From: Octopus vulgaris | Taxonomy: Eukaryota | Length of the DNA stretch: 64,000 nucleotides | Direction of reading: 5' to 3' | NCBI GenBank assembly: GCA_951406725.2 | Contig: OX597820.1 | Coordinates: 83,328,001-83,392,000 of the forward strand | Shown: positions 31,134-59,182 of the stretch, piece by piece | Position numbering within the stretch: the first letter of the stretch is position 1 | Layout: each line of letters starts with the position of its first letter | The notes under the pieces: model-generated | What the model saw: only the letters and a program-made list of their open reading frames with translations | Databases searched by the model: none | Told to the model about the DNA's origin: nothing | Made by a program: the position numbers and the translations under genes

Positions 31134-33638
31134 TTTCTTTATTAGCCACATAGGGCTGCACACGGACGGGACAGATTACAAAGTAGAGCTTTTCTTTTGG
31201 GGGAGGAAAACAATTGGGGTAGGTGTTCGATCAATAGGGATCGTGCATCACAGAGTCATGATGTAAAGTTAAAGGGGGAAGCAGATAAGGTTTATCCGTG
31301 GAAAGAAAAGCCTCCGGAAAAGACTACGGTAACCTCAGTCAATAATGTCACATGTTAACACATTTATTTGCAAGTAGGTAACTCTCTGTTTTAAATTTTT
31401 CCGGGTTCATAGGATTATGCTCAAGGTGGGTTCGTTATTCATACATGCCATCCTTGCTACGTTCACCCATCATTTTTTAAAACATTCGCTAGACAAAACT
31501 TGCCTCTCTACTCTCACTTTCCTATTCAAGTGATACTTGAAGAGGTTGATGAGAGATTGACCAGAGAGGAAAATGTTTGTCTCCAATCCTTTCGGATGTG
31601 TCTACCAGATACATTCTTTCGCCATAGCAACAAGAATGATGAAAATAGCTCTACCTTCCCGCTTGTAGAAAGGAGGCGTGACAATATTGATGATAGACTC
31701 GGCTGATAAACCGACTCGTCCCACACGTGACAGCAGTCGTTCGACATAAGCCCACAGGTCGGAAATTGTTGGACATTACACGAGTGCGTGCAGAACGGTT
31801 TCGTCGCTCTGACCGCATCTCGGAGAGGTCGGCCCTGTGTTTCTCGAGCCGTGTCTGTAGAGTTTATCCCGAACGGGTAGCGCTTCTCGGTAGCACTGCC
31901 AGGCCAGGGATCTCTGGAAGTTGTCAATGGGCCCTGGCCCGAAAGTCATCCTGAAACAGGCGGGTCAGGTATTCTTCGTCGACGTCCTAGTTCGCCCCGA
32001 GCTCGTCATCGTACCTCACCTCCACTAATCCCCTATAGAATGCTTTGGTTCTGTTGAAGTCACTGAAGATCGTCCCGGGACGGCATAGATGATTGAGAGC
32101 AACGCGACACTCGTGGTGCCATTCGTCCTTCCTCGGCCTCTTTTTGATCCACAACTGCAGTTCGGTCATGGAGACGAGTTGCGAGAAGGTGTGCCTCACA
32201 AACGGCGACCACAGCTGTTTACCGTTGTCTACGTAGAGCCTCAGATATCACAGTCTCAGCGCATGTTTGCGCATCATCAACCACGGCATGCCCAGTCCTC
32301 CTTTTAACGGGTGTTGACAGCAAATAGATCGCCTGACCATCGGGACCTATCCTCTCCACAGTAAGCGAAAGAGAATGCGTTCTAATTTAGTGATGTTAGG
32401 GTCGGAACAAAGCACGACGATCAGGCGGTAGTAGATGACGGATGCGATGTTTGAGTTCACCACCTCCGCCTGACCTTTTAGGGACAGTTTCCTCTCGGCC
32501 CATTGCCGGGCGAGAGTGAACGCCCTACTCGTTATCTCGTTCCAGTTTTTCTCCGTTTGGAGGTCCGGACCAAACCAGACCCCTAGCAACTCGACCGGAC
32601 CGTCGGTCCAGCGTCCCACGATGGAGGCGTTGGTAGACGGCATGGGCTTGTTTCTCCAGGTGCCGAGCCGCAAGCCCACTGATTTTTCCCGGTTGATTTT
32701 CGCTCCTCTCACCGCTTCGTAGTCTTTCAGTGTCTCGCCAACCAGCTCGATGTGCTCGTAGCTAGACACTATGACGGTGACGTCGTCCGCGTATGCAGAC
32801 ACGCTCGTCCTGCATCCCAATTCTCGCGGGATGCCCCTCAGAGTTGCCAGCTTCCGCAATAAAATCTCGAGAGACAATACGCTGAGAAGTGACGAGAGGG
32901 GGCATCTCTGACGGACCGAACGTGCAATGTTGAAAGGTGTCGATAGATGTCCATTAACGCGAATTACCGAACGGATACCTCTGTACTAAGCGGTTATACA
33001 ACCGCGGAAGATGGAACTGAAACCAGCTGCTCTGAGGACAGCCTCCAAGTATCGATGGTCTACCCTATCGAAAGCTTTCGATTGATCCAAATTGATCAAG
33101 GCCCCACCAATGCCAGGTTCCTTAACTTCTCTGTCTATGATGTAGCGCATCAGATGAAGGTTTTCATGGATGCTCCGGCCCGGCACGGAGCACGATTGCG
33201 CATTCTCGACCAGTTTCTCGATGACAAGCGCCAACCTCTTGGCTAACACTTTGGCCAAACTTTTCAAGTCTGCATTAAGCAGAATGATTTGCCTAAAGTT
33301 ATCTATTACATCCCCTTTGTTTAGATCTTTCCTCAGCAGTGTTACGGCTGCTCGGCTCACAAAACCAGGGATGCTCCCGTTTTGCTGCCAGTTGCAGTAC
33401 ACCGCTGCTAAGACGTCTCCAAACAAGTCTGGCATACAACTGTAAAGCTCGTAGGGTAGACCATCCAAAGCTGACGATTTGTCCCTCGAGCAATCTGCGA
33501 TCGCGTCCCGCACTTCCACCACTGTGATGGCACCTTCGCAGCGCCCTTCCTCTCTTGTCGAGAGTCGTGGCAGGCTGTGTAGGTAGGCACTGAAGTCCAC
33601 CCTATGTTCTTGCCCGCCACTCGTCCCGAAGAGTCCTT
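31134..33638 (-). mobile_element. 5'-truncated Tx1-clade LINE: RT, zinc knuckle and 3' UTR; pseudogenised
   Basis: KSSALDGLPYELY, NFRQIILLNADLKSLAKVLAKRL, LINLDQSKAFDRVDH, SVRQRCPLSSLL, SAYADDVTV and CPRCGQSDETVLHALVQC. Ends GTGGCTAATAAAGAAA and sits between (AC)n-rich flanks. Visibly more GC-rich than its surroundings. Confidence 0.92.
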
Positions 33639-33845
33639 TCAGATAGAAACACACAAACACACACACGCACTCATACACACACGCTATCTCTCTCGCTTTC
33701 TCCCCATTCCTAACCCTCATGTACTATCTTATATCTCTCTCCACCCCATACACACTCAATAATACTATAAAAAGAGAGAAAATTCCTGCAAAAGTTCAAT
33801 TTGACAACTCCACTAGAGTGGATGAATGCGCTATTATATGATATA

Positions 33846-46009: not shown

Positions 46010-46074
<65 letters not shown>

Positions 46075-46077
<3 letters not shown>

Positions 46078-46717
46078 AATTAGTAAATAAATGGCACAAT
46101 TAAGTACCGATATTTACTGGAAATAGCGAACGTAAAAATACGACGCTAATGTGTAGCTTCACCGCGTATGTATTAGCAAAAATGCGTGTGTGCAACAAAA
46201 TAGAGAAAAAAAAACCGTCTTACCTCCAGGGAGAACATCTGAAAGATGAAACACCCGGAAAATGGATAATGTGGTACCTGCAGGTTTCAGGTTTTGCAAG
46301 TTATGTCTCTCACTCATATTTTGCTTTACCTTCTTCAGCCAAACATATACCAAGACGAAATCTACGATGTTACCAAATTAATACTAACACACTCGACTGA
46401 AATACGGAACGCTAACAGTACGAGAAACGGTGAAGAAGCTTCAAAATATCAGTAATGCAATACAAAGTATTGCCTTCCAGTAAAAAGTAGCCCGTGAGGG
46501 AAAAATACACAAATTAGTAAATAAATGGCACAACTAAGTACCGATATTTACTGGAAATAGCGAACGTAAAAATACGACGCTAATGTGTAGCTTCACCGCG
46601 TATGTATTAGCAAAAAATATCGGTACTTAGTTGTACCATTTATTTACTAATTTGTGTATTTTTCCCTCACGGGCTACTTTTTACTGGAAGGCAATACTTT
46701 GTATTGCATTACTGATT
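46075..46717 (-). mobile_element. Non-coding Penelope-like pLTR / retrozyme-like element: 434-bp unit, partial tandem copy and inverted tail
   Basis: 46075-46183 is repeated at 46509-46616. 46617-46717 is the reverse complement of ~46447-46549. Contains a hammerhead core and has a paralogue at 56826-57347. Confidence 0.8.
46264..46351 (-). ncRNA. Type I hammerhead ribozyme (predicted)
   Basis: GGUAUAUGUUUGG-CUGAAGA-[AGGU aaa GCAA aa UAUG..CAUA ac UUGC aaa ACCU]-GAA-[ACC ugca GGU]-A|CCACAUUAUCC. All core nucleotides are present, with a GUA cleavage triplet. Confidence 0.85.
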
Positions 46718-46734
46718 ATATATATATATATAAA

Positions 46735-47293
46735 ATCAAAATGAGGGTGAAAAAATTGGATATTAATTTAATAGCATCAATTTAGCACCAGTGGTTTAGC
46801 GCATAAAAAACTGAGATTCAGTAAAAATATTATTAATACACAACTATTAGAGAGAATCCACTATCTGGGCACCCTTAAGCTAAAGAGAGATCCGAATGAG
46901 TCTCAACCACTAAGAATTGTTCTCAAGAAAAATTTAGCACACTATGAACGTAAGCGAGCAGGACAAATGAAAAATAACAAAAATATAGATTAACCCCATG
47001 CAATTGTTTCACTGTTAATAAATTATGCAATTTTACCTACACAATTAACCTGCAGATGATCAGTTAGGTCCGTCATAAAATATAATTTGTCGAACTGCAT
47101 GCCAGATATTAACACGAGGTCAAAAATGCGAGTAGTTCGGCCTATTATATTCACAGTTATATTCAAATGCCCTCGTTCAAGCGCGCCAAATAACCGGAAA
47201 TAAATACTGCATAAATAATTCACTGCAGTGGTTTACGCCGGTTTGAGAACATATTGATTTAGAATTAATATCAAAATGAGGGTCAAAAAATTG
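46735..47293 (-). mobile_element. Second PLE pLTR-like unit (535-bp period) with decayed hammerhead
   Basis: Direct repeat ATCAAAATGAGGGT(G/C)AAAAAATTG at 46735 and 47270. Hammerhead-like core at 46992-47071. Confidence 0.55.
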
Positions 47294-47620
47294 ATAGCAG
47301 AACTAAATTACAATGTTATCGAAGCAGTGATTGCAACTGGCCTCCAAAATGGTAAACGTCTGTTCATTCCGCGGATACCCCTTATAACAACCGATACTCA
47401 GTTTCCGTTCCAATTAATGCGCAGGCAGTTTCCGATAACACCGTCATTCTTATTCACAGCAAGCAAGACACAGGGCCAGAGTTTAGATCGTGTAGGTGTA
47501 TTTTTATACACTCGAATGTTTACACACGGTCAGTTATACGTCGCTGTGAGTAGAGCAGCAGAGTAATTTGAAAATTAGTGTCGACCACAAACAAAATATC
47601 GTCTCCTAAGAGGTTTTGTA
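47294..47620 (+). mobile_element. Helitron PIF1-like helicase C-terminal fragment
   Basis: NVIEAVIATG..GKRLFIPRIPL...RRQFPITPSFLFTASKTQGQSLDRVGV...FTHGQLYVAVSR. Confidence 0.9.
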
Positions 47621-47867: not shown

Positions 47868-50800
47868 GGAGAGAACACCGGGGACGTTTAAGATGTGAGA
47901 ACGATAAAACAGTGCCCCGAAATCTATCCACAAACATCGAAAACAAAGACATCGTATGGAGCCAAAAATTTACTAACAAAGAATTGGACTATATCCGAGT
48001 AAGTAATACTCATTGAAATTTATTATTATTTTCGAAACGAAATGATGTATTTTAACTCGATATCATCTCCACCTCTAACACAACACATGTAAACATGCGT
48101 GGACATTACGATCCGTCAACACCAGATTACCCCCGACTCCAAATACAATGTAACGCAAAAAAATATATCAGAAATAGAAATATAAAAGGAAAAATACATC
48201 AGGAAAATGTAGATAGAAGCCACACAACAATGCCCAATAATATAAAAACTGAAACAGTAAAACACGAAGACAAACGTAACATTTCCAACAAAAAATTGGG
48301 ATGTAAACAAAAAACAACAAACCCAGACCGTAAGGATGCATAATAATACACGACAAACAGCAAGCCAAAACACGACAAACTAACATACAAATGAGAAAGA
48401 AAGTGACACAAATCTAAAATCTGGAAACAACGAAGGGGAGCCAACAAACACGATGTAAACAACGAAGGGGAGCCTAATGATTATGATAATATAAAAAGTA
48501 AAATAATCAAAGAACTGAAAACCACAGAGCTCAAAATGGACCACCGACCATACCTCCCAAAAATCAAAATAGACGAAACAACAACACCAATTATAAGCAA
48601 TATAAACCTAGCCGTCACGGAACTAATAGCCACTGAAAAAAAAAGCGATATCACTGAGCTAAATGACTTAGTATACGCAGCAGCCACTGCAGTCAAAATA
48701 GAAGCTGGATACTCACTCAAACCCATCCAAACAGAAGTACCACCACCCAAAAAAAACCTGTGGATAAATAACATCCCAAGCAACATACAATAAATGAGAA
48801 AAGATCTGTCGATTCTTAATGAAATCAGTAGACAATCAACGCTACTGAGCAAAAAAAAGAAAACAAAAATACTCCGCAAATACAACATCACAGAAAAAGA
48901 TTTACCTGAGATAAAAGAAAAGCTAAAGCAAGATATCCTTGCCAAAGCACAAAGGATCCGCCGGTACGAGAAACGCCAGCGCTTCTTTGAACAAAACAAA
49001 AAGTTCAACTCCAACCCCAAAAAGTTCTACCAAGAATTTGGCAAAAATAAAATAGAAATCACTGCAGCACCAACGGCAGAAGAGGTGGAAGGATTCTGGA
49101 GAGAAATATGGTCGGCGAACGAACAACCAAAAACAGGAGTATTAAAACAACAAACTCAGCATCTGAGCAACTTTGGACCCCATAACAACTGAAGAGGTCA
49201 CGCAGGCACTGCAAAGACTAAGCAACTGGAAGGCACCTGGGTATGACAATATCCCGAACTTCTGGTTGAAATATCTAACAGGAATGAACAAAAGCTGTCT
49301 GAAAATTTTAACAAATACTAGCAGAGCCAGAGACAATGCCTGAATGGCTCACGAAGGGGAAAACTATCTTAATTCCCAAATCAAATGAGACAGCAAAACC
49401 AGAAAGCTACAGACCAATAATCTGTTTCCCTACAATGTACAAGGCATTTACTGCAGTGATATCGTAAAAGTTGAACAAGCACCTGGACGAAAACTACCTG
49501 TTTCCAGAAGAGCAGAAAGGATGCCGCAAAGTTTCATATGGCTGTAAAGATCAACTAATGCTTAATAAAGCCATAACTGAAGACAGCCACAGAAAGAAGA
49601 AAGGCCTCAGTATGGGCCGGATCGACTACAAAAAGGCGTTTGATAGCATCCCCCACACATGGATCCTCGAAACACTAGCCATTAACAAAGTAGCACCAAC
49701 AATTATAAAATTCATATGACACTCTATGAATAAATGGCAAACAGTGCTACAGCTCCAAACAAAAGAGGGACTCATGAAAACCAAAGCCATCCCCATTAGA
49801 AGAGGAATATTCCAGGGAGATTCGCTCTCTCCACTACTTTTCTGCTTGGCACTGTCACCTCTATCTGATATGCTACATAGAACTGGATGCGGATATAAAT
49901 GTTACGGCAAAGCGATCAGCCACATTTTATATATGGATGACCTAAAACTATACGCTGCAAATGACAAACAGCTGGAAAAACTATTAAAGCCAGTTCATGG
50001 ATTTACCAAAGAAATAGATATGAATTTTGGATTAGAAAAATGCGCCAAAGTAACCCTGAAAAGAGGAAAACAAGTGAAGAGTAGCAACATCACACTAGAT
50101 AAAACCAAGAAAATAAAAGAATTAGACCAAAACCAAACTTACAAATACTTAGGAATCCATGAACTAGATAAGACACAACACACACAAATGAAAGAGAAAA
50201 TAAAAAAGAATATTATAGACGAGATAGATCAATACTAAAACAGATCTCAATGCTAAAAACAAGATAATAGGTATTAACATTTTAGCTGTCCCTGTTATAA
50301 GTTACAGCTACAATATCCTTAACTGGACACTAAATGAACTGACCAAAATAGATAGGAAAACAAGAAAAATAATGACAGGATCTAGGATGCATCACCCAAC
50401 ATCTGACATAGAAAGACTATATATACAACGTATAGAAGGTGGTAGAGGCCTTATACAGCTGGAGAACTACTATAAAATAACCACCATAGGATTGCAAAAA
50501 TATCTACTTCAGAAGGATGGAAAACTGATACAAATAGCGGCAAAACACGAGCGAAACAAAAAACTGTTCTCAGTATATAAGGAAGCTGACAAATACAAAC
50601 AAGAAATCATACCACCTAATAAATATGAAGATGAAGAAGGAAGAAGAAGAAGAAGAAGAAGAAGAAGAAGAAGAAGAAGAAGAAGAAGAAGAAGAAGAAG
50701 AAGAAGAAGAAGAAGAAGAAGAAGAAGAAGAAGAAGAAGAAGAAGAAGAAACAACAAAAGCTATAAAACAAATGAAATCCAAACTAAAAATAGAACAGCA

Positions 50801-51857
50801 ACGAGCCATGATAAAACGATGGCAAGAAAAGCCCCTTCATGGTAAATACTGCACTAAACTAAACGCAAAAGAAATAGACAAAGAAAAATCCCAGCAATGT
50901 TTGAGAAGCTCAGGACTCAAAGCAGAAACAGAGAGATTCTTAATTGCAGCACAAGACCAAAGCCTCCCCACCAGAAATTACCAAAAACATGTAATGAAAA
51001 GAAATATTACAAGTAACTGCAGAATATGTGGAGATGGACAAGAAACAATAAATCATATTATCTCTGGCTGCCCAGTCCTGGCTAAGAAGGAATATATTCA
51101 CAGACATGACAGAGTTGGAACCTACATACATTGGAGATGGACATGAAACAATAAATCATATTATCTCTGGCTGCCCAGTCCTGGCTAAGAAGGAATATAT
51201 TCACAGACATGACAGAGTTGGAACCTACATACATTGGAGATGGACAAGAAACAATAAATCATATTATCTCTGGCTGCCCAGTCCTGGCTAAGAAGGAATA
51301 TATTCACAGACATGACAGAGTTGGAACCTACATACATTGGAAGTTATGCCAACATTATGGAATAACAACAGAAAAAAGATGGTATAGGCACACACCAGAA
51401 AAGGTCACAGAAAACGAGAAAGCAACCATACTCTGGGATATGCCGATACACACAGATAGAGAAATTAAGGCCAACAGACCAGATATAGTTGTCAGAGATC
51501 ATGAAGAAAAAAAATGCTTTCTAATTGATGTATCAATACCGGCAGATGACAACGTGTCTCTAAAAGAAATAGAGGTAACTAGAATGTGGAACCTGAAAAC
51601 AGAAACAATTCCTATCATAGTAGGTGCATTAGGCATGATAAAAAAATATTCAGACAAATACATGACAAAAACACCAGGACTTACAAACACATATAACATA
51701 CAGAAAATTGCACTACTAGGCACTGCACACATCCTACGCAGAACACTTTCCATACAATAACCATCAGAGCATCACAACAAATCACAGCACATACCCAAGG
51801 CACACAGAGCTGCGCTCGGTAGTGAAGTGAAAGCACGCTATAAAAATAAAACTACTG
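47868..51857 (+). mobile_element. Near full-length Dong/R4-clade non-LTR retrotransposon (RT, CCHC, restriction-like endonuclease), inactivated
   Basis: WKAPGYDNIPNFWLK, EEQKGCRK, IDYKKAFDSIPH, RGIFQGDSLSPLLF, YMDDLKLY, RLYIQRIEGGRGL, CRICGDGQETINHIISGC and RPDIVVRD..CFLIDVSIP. Contains several stops and frameshifts. Flanked by (AAT)n on both sides, the known Dong target type. Confidence 0.95.
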
Positions 51858-54330: not shown

Positions 54331-56277
54331 CTGTGTATATGTGTATGTGCGTCTGCGTACATATATGTATGCATGGATATAAGTGTGTGAATCTGCGTAT
54401 TATTTATGAGGCAGACACGATGATGTTAACAGAATGACTATATGTACCCAAAATGATTAACTGAATTATTTTATGTCTGTCGAGTGCTACAATCATCATC
54501 CATATTTTCAACAAGTCAATGGGTGCATTTTGCTGCAGATTGAATCACCGTTGTTACTTCAACAGTGTTAATTGCATCGATTTTGGTAGATATAATTATC
54601 CATAAGTTTTTAAGTTTTAATGCCCGTAATAGGTTTCCGCTTAATGCAGTATGTGTAATGAAAATGTAATGGAGGACAGCACTCTTCGTTCATATACGAA
54701 TTGAGATAACACTTGTGAAGAATGAAGGAAAAAAAATAACTAAGAGGTTATTTTGGGCAAAGTACTTAGTGAAACAATGTGAGATTATTAAGACGAGTAT
54801 ATCGTTGTTAATAATTCCTTTCGAATATATATGACTCTGGCAGATAGACAAGTACAACAGCAACATAAAAAAACAACACAAACAAGATAAACAACAAAAA
54901 TAGCAACACTAAATTATAATAATGTATCAGATGATCTTGAGTTTAAATCATTGTCGAAGTGTCGAGATTATCACGTGTCCTAAAGCAGGTGAGTATCAAA
55001 ATTGTTAGACTCTTGCTGTATTTGTCCTTGTCTATTTTTTTTTATATATTCTGATTTCAAATCCCGCTGATGTCATTTATATCTTTATTATTTTTTCCTC
55101 ATAGTCGACTAAAATTTCCCAGAATACTTTTACCGCTGGTGCTTCTATTAGAAAAAGTTACCTGACTTCTGGAAAGTTACCCGACATCTTCAATTTGACA
55201 AAGAAGGCATAGATTCTGAAACAGAAAGCCATGACATTGATATTTCATTGATACTTGATAATTGCCATTTGTTCAGGAATTTCGCTCGATACAATCAAAG
55301 AAGAAACGATAAAGTGTAGCTTAGGAATTCCTCCGTGCACTAACCTGAAATCACAATAAAAGCAGGCAATCCATAAACGATCGCAAATTAAAAGGATCAT
55401 ATCCTCAATATAGATCAAGATTTATCAATGAGTTTCGTCATTTTATCGACTAGCCAACCAACCTTTGCAATGATTCCCAGATGGCCTTTGAAGAATAATT
55501 CTCGTAGCTTACACGTGTATTACCAGATAAAATCATAACGACATCTCGGTAATACACAATCGCCTTTTCTAAATAGGACATCTTAGATGAGGCTGAGTAT
55601 GTTCGAATTTTGTTACCGATTCACAGTTTCATTCGATATAGAAATAACCATACAAAATATTATGAAGTCATTTACGAATATATTAATACGACTCTCAGAT
55701 GCTAATAGTGGATTGCAGCCAACAATTTCGTTTAATGATGAGTAGATGTAAGTGTGTGAGTCAGTATTTTTGCGCGTGCGAGTGTTTTCATATGGTGGAT
55801 ATTCGTAGTTCGACAAGGAGGAATTAGTTGTTTAATCAACTGAAATAATTGCTCCTATATTAATGTGTAAGTACCAAACATTCCTCGGGCGCATGCATCC
55901 TTCATTTTATTAGCTGAACCTATGTGATATAGTGTAGGCTAAGAGTGTATCTTTTGAAATACATGTATAATCCACTCGAGAGATTAGGTTAAATTCTGTC
56001 GTTTTTGGTCTTGAAGTAGACACTATTACCGGAGGCGCTATCAGCGTCACGAGCCCCAAACAAAATTGACTGCCGTTAATTCACCTGGAGTTTATCAGCC
56101 ATTTTACGGGTATTATTTTTCGTCCTACGGAATGTCCAAATACAAAAAAAGAGAAGAAGAATAAAGCTATCGTTGCTCCGAATGTTTTGAGCATTTGACG
56201 AGATAGCAGTGAATATCCACAATTCTTTAGCTGTTAATCTGATATCCCCAACCACAACTTTGTGGAGTATATATATA

Positions 56278-56374
<97 letters not shown>

Positions 56375-56380
56375 ATATGT

Positions 56381-56430
<50 letters not shown>

Positions 56431-56825
56431 GCATACATACCCAGAACCATGCTTATGAAAGAAATTCAGGATTTCTCGGTTTTCCGTGAATCGATTAAAA
56501 AAAATTTCCCACCTTGTTTGCGCACTATGGCAAAACCATTATTATGTTTTCATTATTCTGTGCAACACTCTTTGTTTTTTATTTCAGATTATTCAGTTTT
56601 GGGACTGAACCACGTTAATAGCTTTTGAATGCCCATCTAGGCATCTTTTTCTACCAAGAAAATGAATGGCAAACATATATTCAGTATATATTTAACAGAA
56701 AACCATAATAATATTATAACATATATTGGCACAACGAATTATTTAGCCACATGAACACCATTTCGATGGATAACTTCAAATCCCTTAAAATCCCTATCGG
56801 TCATGCCAAATCTGCCCATTTCTTC

Positions 56826-57347
56826 ACTGCGTATGTACTAGCAAAAATGCGTGTGTGCAACAAACTTGAAAAAAATTGTCTTACCTCCAGGGAGAACATC
56901 TGAAAGATGAAATACCTAGAAAGGGATAATGTGGGACCGGTTTCAGATTTTTCAGGATATGTCTGCACATATATACTTGATTTATCTTCATCAGCCAACA
57001 TATACCTCGACAAGATTTCAGATGTTGCCACATCAATGCTAATACAATCGACTGAAACGCCAAAACGCTGACAGAACGAGAACAGTGATGAAGTTTCAAT
57101 AAAAATAGTAATGCAATACTAGAGTATTGCTTTCCAGTAAAGAATAGCCCGTGAGGGAAAATTATACATAGAAGTAAATATATGGCACAACGAAGTACCG
57201 ATATTTACTGGAAAATAGCGAACGTAGTAAATACGACGCTAATGTATAGCTACACCGCGTATGTACTAGCAAAAATGCGTGTGTGCAACAAACTTGAAAA
57301 AAATTGTCTTACCTCACGGGCTATTCTTTACTGGAAAGCAAATACTG
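56826..57347 (-). mobile_element. Second copy of the hammerhead-bearing pLTR/retrozyme-like element: 428-bp unit, partial tandem copy and short inverted tail
   Basis: 56829-56886 is repeated at 57257-57315. 57312-57347 is the reverse complement of ~57123-57157. Colinear with 46075-46717. Confidence 0.8.
56924..57006 (-). ncRNA. Type I hammerhead ribozyme (predicted)
   Basis: GGUAUAUGUUGG-CUGAUGA-[AGAU aaa UCAAG uau AUAUGU gcag ACAUAU CCUGA aaa AUCU]-GAA-[AC cg GU]-C|CCACAUUAUCC, with a canonical GUC cleavage triplet. Confidence 0.88.
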
Positions 57348-57349
57348 TA

Positions 57350-57800
57350 TAAAGCCACACGTGAAACCAGCAAACTTATTTAATAGATTAGCTTTGATAT
57401 GTATAACTGAAATGCCTTTTCACTTGCGACAGATTAATTTATATAAAAGAACGGATGGAGCGGCCGTCGGTCACCCACTAGGTCCTACGCCTGCGGCATT
57501 CTACTTGTAAACAAAAAGGAAACAACACATTATCGCTATAAACATGATATTATACACGTAATACAACGACGCATGCAGTTAATGAAGTTGAGGGACTAAA
57601 GGAAGACTTAGAATACAAGCTGATAGTAAAATTTGATACCCAAAATAATGAACAGGAGATCCTGTTTTGGACATGAAGATACGATTTTAAAAAGAAACAG
57701 ATATGTTACTTAAGTGTACACCAAATAATCAAACATATACATATACCTACACAGGCACAGTGAATACTCACACAACTATCAGATGTCAGCATAAATGTCA
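57350..57800 (+). mobile_element. Penelope-like reverse transcriptase relic
   Basis: LICITEMPFHLRQINLYKRTDGAAVGHPLGPTPAAFYL matches the PLE RT motif YKQxDGVAMGSPLGPxLAxFYM. Downstream are decayed HYRYKHDI (RYVDD), EILFWT-like (PFLD) and VYTK pieces. Confidence 0.7.
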
Positions 57801-58144
57801 CTTCTTAGATGAATACTTATCTATATTCTCGTCCATAAACAATCGTCTAGAATAAAGATACGTGGAACTAAAACAATTATCTGCGAATATTTCAAGATGA
57901 ACAAGTAATAAAACCTATCTCGTAAAATGTAACGCAAAAAGCATCACACCCGACAATAAGCTTAAATTAATAATATAGTACAAATATGGTATTTGTGTAT
58001 TTGTCTTTGGTGTATTCAGAGATGCATTTGGTGTATAGTTTTTGTGTCAGTACGTTTTTATATCTTCTTACACCAGCCTTCTAGAATATCAAATATGTAT
58101 GTGTATATATATATATACATGTATATTTATACATATATACATAT

Positions 58145-58225
<81 letters not shown>

Positions 58226-58306
58226 TTATATATATATATATATATACAGATATATCCATACATATATACATATATATATACAGATATATTTATACATATA
58301 TACATA

Positions 58307-58507
58307 TTCTTTTACTTGTTTCAGTCATTTGACTGCGGCCATGTTACAGCACGGCCTTTAGTCGAGCAAATAGACCCCGGGACCTATTCTTTGTAAGGCC
58401 AGTACTTATTCTACCGGTCTATTTTGCCGAACCGCTTAGTGACGGGGACGTAAACACACCAGCATCGGTTGTCAAGCAATGCTAGGGGAATAAACACAGA
58501 CACACAA

Positions 58508-58538
<31 letters not shown>

Positions 58539-58710
58539 CATATATACGACAGGATTCTTTCAGTTTCCGTCTACTAAATCCACTCACAAGGCATTGGTCG
58601 GCCCGGGGCTAATAACAGAAGACAGTCGCCCAAGATGCCACGCAGTGGGACTGAACCCGGAACCATGTGGTTAGTCAGCAAGCTACTTACCACACAGCCA
58701 CTCCTGCGCT
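58307..58710 (-). mobile_element. tRNA-derived CORE-type SINE (family B; resembles octopus OR-type SINEs)
   Basis: Minus strand reads GCGCAGGAGTGGCTGTGTGGTAAG (A box), GGTTCCGGGTTCAGTCCC (B box) and CATCTTGGGCGACTGTCTT (CORE-like). An internal (TA)/(TG) tract precedes a tail ending GAAACAAGTAAAAGAA. Confidence 0.85.
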
Positions 58711-58752
58711 TATACACATGTGTGTACATACATATATATGTACACACACATG

Positions 58753-58788
<36 letters not shown>

Positions 58789-59182
58789 CACACACATATT
58801 TCAGTATGCATATGCATATATACATATCTATGGGGTCGTATACTTGCGTCTCTATCTGTATTTGTATATCAGATATGTGTTATATGTGTCTATGTATTAT
58901 CAGGTCGCAGTGGGCAAGACTTTGGGCTGTAGAACATGTCAATGACGATATAAATTAATGGGTTTAATATAAAATAATATTGAAATTGATGGCCTTACCC
59001 CAACATGTTCGCATTCCAATGATTGACTTGATAAATTTAGAAAAAAAGAGATGTTATACACTGAAATATATATGTGCATATTTATAAATTTTCATAAATA
59101 CCTATACATCTTTCTCAGTCTATATATTTATATGTATACGGACACACTCACATATACGCGCATATATAAATATGAATGTGTA

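Follow-up and report, generated by a model that had tools for sequence, protein, structure and literature searches.

A hammerhead motif with an extended helix II in a dispersed Octopus vulgaris repeat that is probably a non-LTR retrozyme

The window, the whole 64,000-nucleotide stretch of Octopus vulgaris DNA analysed here (contig OX597820.1, positions 83,328,001 to 83,392,000), carries two hammerhead motifs on its minus strand, H2 and its twin H1, each lying within a repeat element that has a main arm and an inverted arm. The features are as follows, in window coordinates.

57006-56924, minus strand: type I hammerhead H2, opening at helix I
56995..57006, minus strand: 5' strand of H2 helix I
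56988..56994, minus strand: H2 catalytic core CUGAUGA (C3 to A9, N7 being U)
56945..56987, minus strand: extended helix II of H2, 43 nt
56987-84/56948-45, minus strand: proximal stem of H2 helix II, 4 bp
56983-81/56951-49, minus strand: AAA/AAA internal loop of H2 helix II
56955 and 56970, minus strand: private breaks in the distal hairpin of H2 helix II
56935..56944, minus strand: GAAA core of H2, palindromic helix III ACCGGU (56941-56936) and C17 (56935)
56924..56934, minus strand: 3' strand of H2 helix I, with U1.7 at 56928
56935/56934, minus strand: predicted cut of H2, after C17
56822..57316, minus strand: main arm of the H2 element, 1.16 periods of a 428-bp non-coding unit with one hammerhead
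57309..57349, plus strand: short inverted arm of the 428-bp unit, back to back with the main arm
~46264-46350, minus strand: H1 hammerhead, core 46338-46285, predicted cut 46275/46274
46072..46616, minus strand: main arm of the H1 element, 434-bp period, 1.26 units, its 3' end running into (TA)n
46615..46716, plus strand: inverted arm of the H1 element, reaching ~60 nt beyond the usual 3' end, then (TA)n

On the minus strand from 56994 to 56935, H2 reads CUGAUGA / AGAU AAA UCA...UGA AAA AUCU / GAAA CCGG UC, and the elements typical of a type I hammerhead are present in it: the CUGANGA and GAAA core strands, an NUH triplet, and three helices of which helix I is open. H1 reads CUGAAGA / AGGU AAA GCA...UGC AAA ACCU / GAAA CCUGCAGG UA, also on the minus strand. 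The letters agree with the original prediction, which had listed stem II as AGGU/ACCU in one motif and AGAU/AUCU in the other, GCA/UGC against UCA/UGA, a retained AAA/AAA loop, N7 as A or U, the triplets GUA (H1) and GUC (H2) and a palindromic ACCGGU stem III; its cut between 56935 and 56934 is also placed correctly. The helix II pairs that it named exist, but the three last of them are not the end of the stem, as a long hairpin continues beyond them. Rfam detects no hammerhead in the window at gathering thresholds, missing H1 and H2 alike, and none at E<=5 within 55000-59000, probably because helix II is so long. A model built from the family returns exactly two matches in the window (111 and 105 bits, the next at 13.9), an outcome that follows from its construction, and the 100-nt motifs alone fold no better than shuffled sequences (z of -0.43 and +0.26).

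H1 and H2 are copies of a non-coding repeat of ~430 bp that is present in many hundreds of copies. The two are 83% identical over 466 bases, with periods of 434 bp (H1) and 428 bp (H2) and a unit GC content of 37%. The genome searched comprises 2.8 Gb in 227 contigs, and the repeat occurs on all of the large ones; DNA searches, in each of which the best 40 matches were scored, recovered copies at 91-99% identity on many contigs. Exact patterns for the ribozyme flank and for the 3' end matched 375 and 916 times genome-wide, with 0 control matches for either, and another, written to catch older subfamilies together with a sister family, matched 254 times. A hammerhead pattern allowing 38-50 nt in helix II gave 1635 genome matches, against 7 for the reversed control, so the motif is not a product of chance. 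The family, with identical subfamily variants, is also seen in runs X11, X16, X19 and X20, which are labelled as four other organisms.

The anatomy of the insertions is regular at one end only. The 3' end falls at unit position 420-434 in 125 of 195 arms, 119 of which then run into TA repeats; a further 58 end ~50-69 nt further on, and 12 end elsewhere. The 5' ends are variable, and arms reach 1094 nt, more than two units. These ends do not coincide with the cut site but lie ~200 and 265 nt beyond it; the 3' end of the H2 element is ~87 bp short of the usual position and outside a TA tract. Among 89 loci collected by DNA similarity, a single ribozyme is found in 66, a tandem pair in units that each carry a hammerhead in 10, and one per strand in 14 (one locus belongs to both of the latter groups). 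The family thus combines a fixed 3' end, 5' truncation, partial tandems, an inverted arm, a tail and a microsatellite target. Such 5'-truncated partial tandems with an inverted arm, a tail at one end and microsatellite targets are described for Penelope-like elements (PLEs; Craig et al. 2021, PMC8557442), where the tail is given as 30-40 nt, compared with ~60-65 nt here.

Several other features adjoin the two copies. Helitron/PIF1-helicase-like fragments lie next to H1 at 46720-47600, and two broken non-LTR retrotransposon reading frames lie at 48400-51760 and 32347-33723, all judged by eye. PLE-RT-like words in degenerate frames beside H2 (57424-57900, plus strand) were confirmed neither by Pfam nor by a PLE profile. 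About 50 nt 3' of the H2 cut (56887-56877, minus strand) stands an almost invariant GGAGGTAAGAC, which resembles a 5' splice site; PLE pseudo-LTRs are described as having introns in their 5' UTRs (PMC8557442).

The differences between H1 and H2 had originally been read as compensatory and as indicating selection on ribozyme function. By itself the pair does not prove selection, as at 83% identity an 11-nt core would stay unchanged by chance with a P of ~0.13. A larger alignment does provide significant covariation. Changes were placed by parsimony on trees and events were counted once per branch. A first tree set, of 129 of the 157 copies (those shorter than 330 nt being dropped), contained 4 same-branch double changes where 0.42 were expected. 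A second, of 138 loci with one copy each and without the loci that had been picked by core patterns, contained 7 in 15 pairs of helices I and II against 0.33 expected (p<1e-4), the expectation being obtained by permuting events among branches while keeping branch and column loads. Two of the seven events fall in helix I and five in helix II, and the first set adds one in helix III. All seven lead from one Watson-Crick pair to another, and one occurred on a branch with only 4 changes. One pair given as G-C/U-A changed by a two-step path, from U-A through A-U to G-C. In 15 hand-picked subfamily examples, a count that ignores relatedness, 6 of 27 pairs have two-sided changes.

These counts bear on the possibility that the apparent compensation reflects only shared ancestry and drift, a few changes having been inherited by many copies. 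The raw counts do stem from few lineage events, and some fixed changes break pairs, such as II.9, which went from G-C to A.C. The per-branch counts (7 and 4, against 0.33 and 0.42) and the uniformly Watson-Crick outcome, including the event on the four-change branch, speak against this explanation, which is very unlikely. Selection on the fold is thus supported at the level of the family. Not every difference preserves the fold, contrary to the original claim: the H1 lineage fixed the A.C at II.9, found in 44 of the 138 loci, and H2 has its two breaks; pair II.1 is G-U, A.C or A.A in some copies. The direction implied by saying that H1 "becomes" H2 is probably reversed: an older subfamily, two double changes away in helix I, has ACCGGU, GUC, CUGAUGA and UCA/UGA, as H2 does, and H1 therefore looks derived.

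Selection on the catalytic core within the family is supported more weakly. No lineage-level change is seen in its 11 positions, against 4.4 expected from 139 changes in 346 columns outside (Poisson P=0.012; column-wise P=0.035; Fisher against private changes P=0.13). An NUH triplet is kept throughout, as GUC in 74 and GUA in 64 of 138 loci. Private changes do hit the core, 11 times in the 138 copies, and the core is damaged in 9 and intact in 73 of 82 copies. These private changes and damaged cores indicate that selection acts on the transposing source lineage that amplifies, while single copies decay neutrally. The H2 locus itself is accordingly not under that selection. H2 differs from its own subfamily at 9 positions, two of which (U>C at 56955 and G>A at 56970) each disrupt a pair of distal helix II; with these two private breaks and a single ribozyme, the copy is probably a dead end. 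That the host has domesticated H2 as a regulatory ribozyme is, of all the readings considered, the one to which we give least credence. Its core is intact, but so is that of most copies in the set of 82, and its nine differences with two broken helix II pairs are what neutral decay of a young copy would be expected to produce. Beyond the ribozyme, pairing is retained by 24 of 35 shared variants and by 35 of 146 private ones, in structures that were derived from the family and so bias the figures upward; same-branch double changes are not in excess there (1 against ~0.7). The unit as a whole is self-paired: all 12 copies analysed reach z<=-2.9 relative to 12 shuffles apiece.

All but one of 12 examples drawn from several families have a perfectly palindromic helix III, at lengths of 6, 8, 10 and 12 nt. 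As a monomer, ACCGGU forms only 1 bp at +6.0 kcal/mol, and 10 of 11 monomer circles give helix III a probability of at most 0.03. Tandem loci behave differently: in all six that could be evaluated, out of eight tried, the double-hammerhead fold is more stable than two monomer folds by 13-18 kcal/mol and exceeds the minimum free energy by 0-10 kcal/mol, these being energies of secondary structure only, with tertiary terms excluded. Natural tandem loci include one with ACCGGU (L314), at which the double fold equals the minimum, one with ACCUGCAGGU (L040) and one with a 12-nt palindrome (L098). The computed fold energies fit the model published for PLE hammerheads (PMC4209133), according to which multimers are cut through dimer formation and circular monomers escape cleavage. 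The ACCGGU of H2 follows the plan described for axolotl HHR_Amex1, one pair and a palindromic tetraloop, for which dimers are needed. H1 and H2 each lack a second ribozyme and hence the two cuts that would free a unit, and neither counts as active under the criterion given by Li et al. for retrozymes. With palindromes from 6 to 12 nt, which should tune dimer dependence, with intact natural dimers, and with a ladder of subfamilies whose compensatory steps can be assigned to branches, the family offers a natural series of variants.

Taken together, these features make it probable, with good confidence, that the family is a non-LTR retrozyme, a non-autonomous Penelope-like element with a self-cutting hammerhead, a circular RNA and PLE-type copying. 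The class is already known. Metazoan non-LTR retrozymes have been described from coral, mussel and axolotl (Cervera and de la Peña 2020, PMC7229834), and have been derived from PLE pseudo-LTRs (Li, Clavereau and Pollet, bioRxiv 10.64898/2026.07.22.740005). As in those described, there is a type I hammerhead with a short palindromic helix III in a non-coding, low-GC, self-paired unit of 150-450 bp that occurs from monomers to multimers; the units here, of 428/434 bp and 37% GC, fall within that size range and below the usual GC ceiling of 45-50%. By analogy, and with the sequence features tested in agreement, the family would work as animal retrozymes do (PMC7229834). Unlike the long arrays reported for those, most loci here have 1-1.5 units with inverted arms in (TA)n, a comparison that concerns DNA only. 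The palindromic helix III, the extra nucleotide after A9 before the G-C pair and the many subfamilies with compensatory changes are likewise described for PLE pseudo-LTR hammerheads (PMC4209133). The variant part is helix II, at 43 nt and with an internal loop conserved at the site of loop 2, whereas helix II is given as 4 bp with a terminal loop in metazoan retrozymes and as at most 7-8 bp in PLE hammerheads (Cervera and de la Peña 2014, PMC4209133); and unlike in the latter, helix I here has 6 bp and then U1.7, as in canonical motifs. We found no description of a cephalopod or long-helix-II retrozyme in the literature searched, with the proviso that Lünse et al. 2017 or the supplements of PMC7229834 and PMC4209133 may describe it.

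In the proposed cycle, the hammerhead would cut tandem transcripts into unit-length RNAs, cleavage being gated by the palindromic helix III: two tandem ribozymes are predicted to form an active double hammerhead, and a lone monomer circle to stay mostly inactive. A host ligase may circularise the unit RNAs, and a Penelope-like reverse transcriptase would probably copy the circles into DNA. Were it to start at a fixed point ~200 nt 3' of the cut and to proceed for more than one unit, the tandem would be restored; ends beyond the cut and arms of more than two units fit such reverse transcription round a circle. Only ribozyme-competent RNAs would then found new subfamilies, which would account for the compensatory changes, and single-ribozyme copies such as H2 would decay neutrally. 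Within-locus identity does not discriminate a circular from a linear template, as tandem units within a locus are not clearly nearer each other than the nearest other locus. In runs that we guess to be RNA, assembled contigs span both the unit and its cut site, and one of them steps back by 434 bases; tandem DNA copies would give an identical joint, and these contigs are therefore no evidence of RNA either way. A direct test of hammerhead cleavage and circular templates as drivers of Penelope-type retrotransposition becomes feasible with this family.

A less probable account, to which we nevertheless allow some weight, sees in the repeat a solo pseudo-LTR of SINE-like character with linear transcripts as its templates; its hammerhead fold would serve the Penelope protein as a structure to bind or recognise and would have little or no cleavage activity. 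PLE hammerheads are described as having low activity in vitro (PMC4209133), and most Xenopus retrozymes as weak, 8 of 9 dimers remaining uncleaved in vitro (10.64898/2026.07.22.740005); the base of helix II is non-canonical here, the within-family core test reaches just P 0.01-0.13, and most of the 89 loci have a single ribozyme. Against this, the catalytic nucleotides and the NUH triplet are kept across subfamilies down to ~75% identity and in families that cannot be aligned, the palindrome has been rebuilt at several lengths, and copying of linear RNA with 5' truncation would presumably only shorten tandems.

The sampled loci yielded no autonomous partner. No reading frame is kept across subfamilies, neither a coding one nor a rolling-circle one: the frames span 113-154 codons in H2-like and 43-96 in H1-like copies, lengths reached by 11-14 of 300 shuffles for the former and by 157 of 300 for the latter. 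None of the sampled copies, unlike PLEs themselves, has PLE coding sequence joined to it in sense; with a profile of seven PLE proteins, the best candidates being scored, only the flanks of L050, L054 and L229/L230 matched, none of them attached in sense. Starting from a GIY-YIG fragment we reached a PLE family that is abundant and old, with 70-89% amino-acid identity between copies; it has no sequence in common with the repeat beyond the core, and its hammerhead is a different, compact one. Pseudo-LTR sequence common to the repeat and an autonomous PLE was found neither in the sampled loci nor in that one old PLE family. In the latter, 3' of the GIY-YIG match (L111-L140), the 3' UTR contains a stretch that we read as tRNA-like and an (AAT)n tract, after which comes a compact hammerhead of the A-then-G-C plan typical of PLE minimal motifs.

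The extended helix II itself consists of 4 bp, a 3x3 internal loop and then a hairpin of ~10 bp. The loop has the form A-R-A/A-R-A, its outer four adenines being present in 137-138 of the 138 loci, whereas its middle base and the flanking pairs vary; the first 5' A is U in some older copies. U1.7 is present in all 138 loci, ~50 of which had been chosen by a pattern containing it, and also in 82 of 82 copies not selected for it. Between the core and an invariant G-C pair, the base of helix II is A-U, G-U or A.A, and G10.1-C11.1 does not therefore stand directly beside the core in this family; an inserted 5' nucleotide at this position is described for PLE hammerheads (PMC4209133). In canonical type I hammerheads, as described for Schistosoma and sTRSV (PMC11875169), U1.7 makes a tertiary contact with the last A of loop 2. 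The family resembles these in its U1.7 and in its conserved, unpaired A-rich segment at 4 bp from the core; it differs in that this segment forms an internal loop where they have a terminal tetraloop, and a contact here is hypothetical. It is conceivable, if somewhat doubtful, that the A-R-A/A-R-A loop takes the place of loop 2 by docking on U1.7; the distal hairpin would then be available as a handle to be bound by, say, a ligase or the Penelope reverse transcriptase. Non-terminal loops that extend stem II are reported to be able to inhibit trans-acting hammerheads (PMC11875169). Whether an internal loop can stand in for loop 2 in an activating tertiary contact thus becomes testable in this family. 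Motifs with a long helix II escape Rfam and size-limited descriptors, and animal hammerheads may therefore be under-counted.

A long helix II (42-70 nt) occurs in at least 6 repeat families of this genome, most of them with U1.7, the five or more besides the present family having 46-70 nt; a search for helices II of 70-100 nt gave 79 matches against 52 in controls, including one real 70-nt family. Four further hammerhead families were noted (L092, L093, L095, L105 and L110; L091, L101 and L104; L245; L262-L272, L283 and L284), with helices II of ~43-70 nt, a palindromic helix III and U.U, A.C, A.A, G.U or A-U at the base. A GC-rich repeat (L103, L109) has hammerhead-like core words and a GUU triplet without a clear helix II. 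A second family (G000:C1, for example L062-L090) is built of 534-bp units, up to 14 of which, nearly identical, follow one another in a tandem array that often also has an inverted arm; each unit has a hammerhead with a helix II of 49-50 nt and G-C at its base, and the arrays have array-specific variants.
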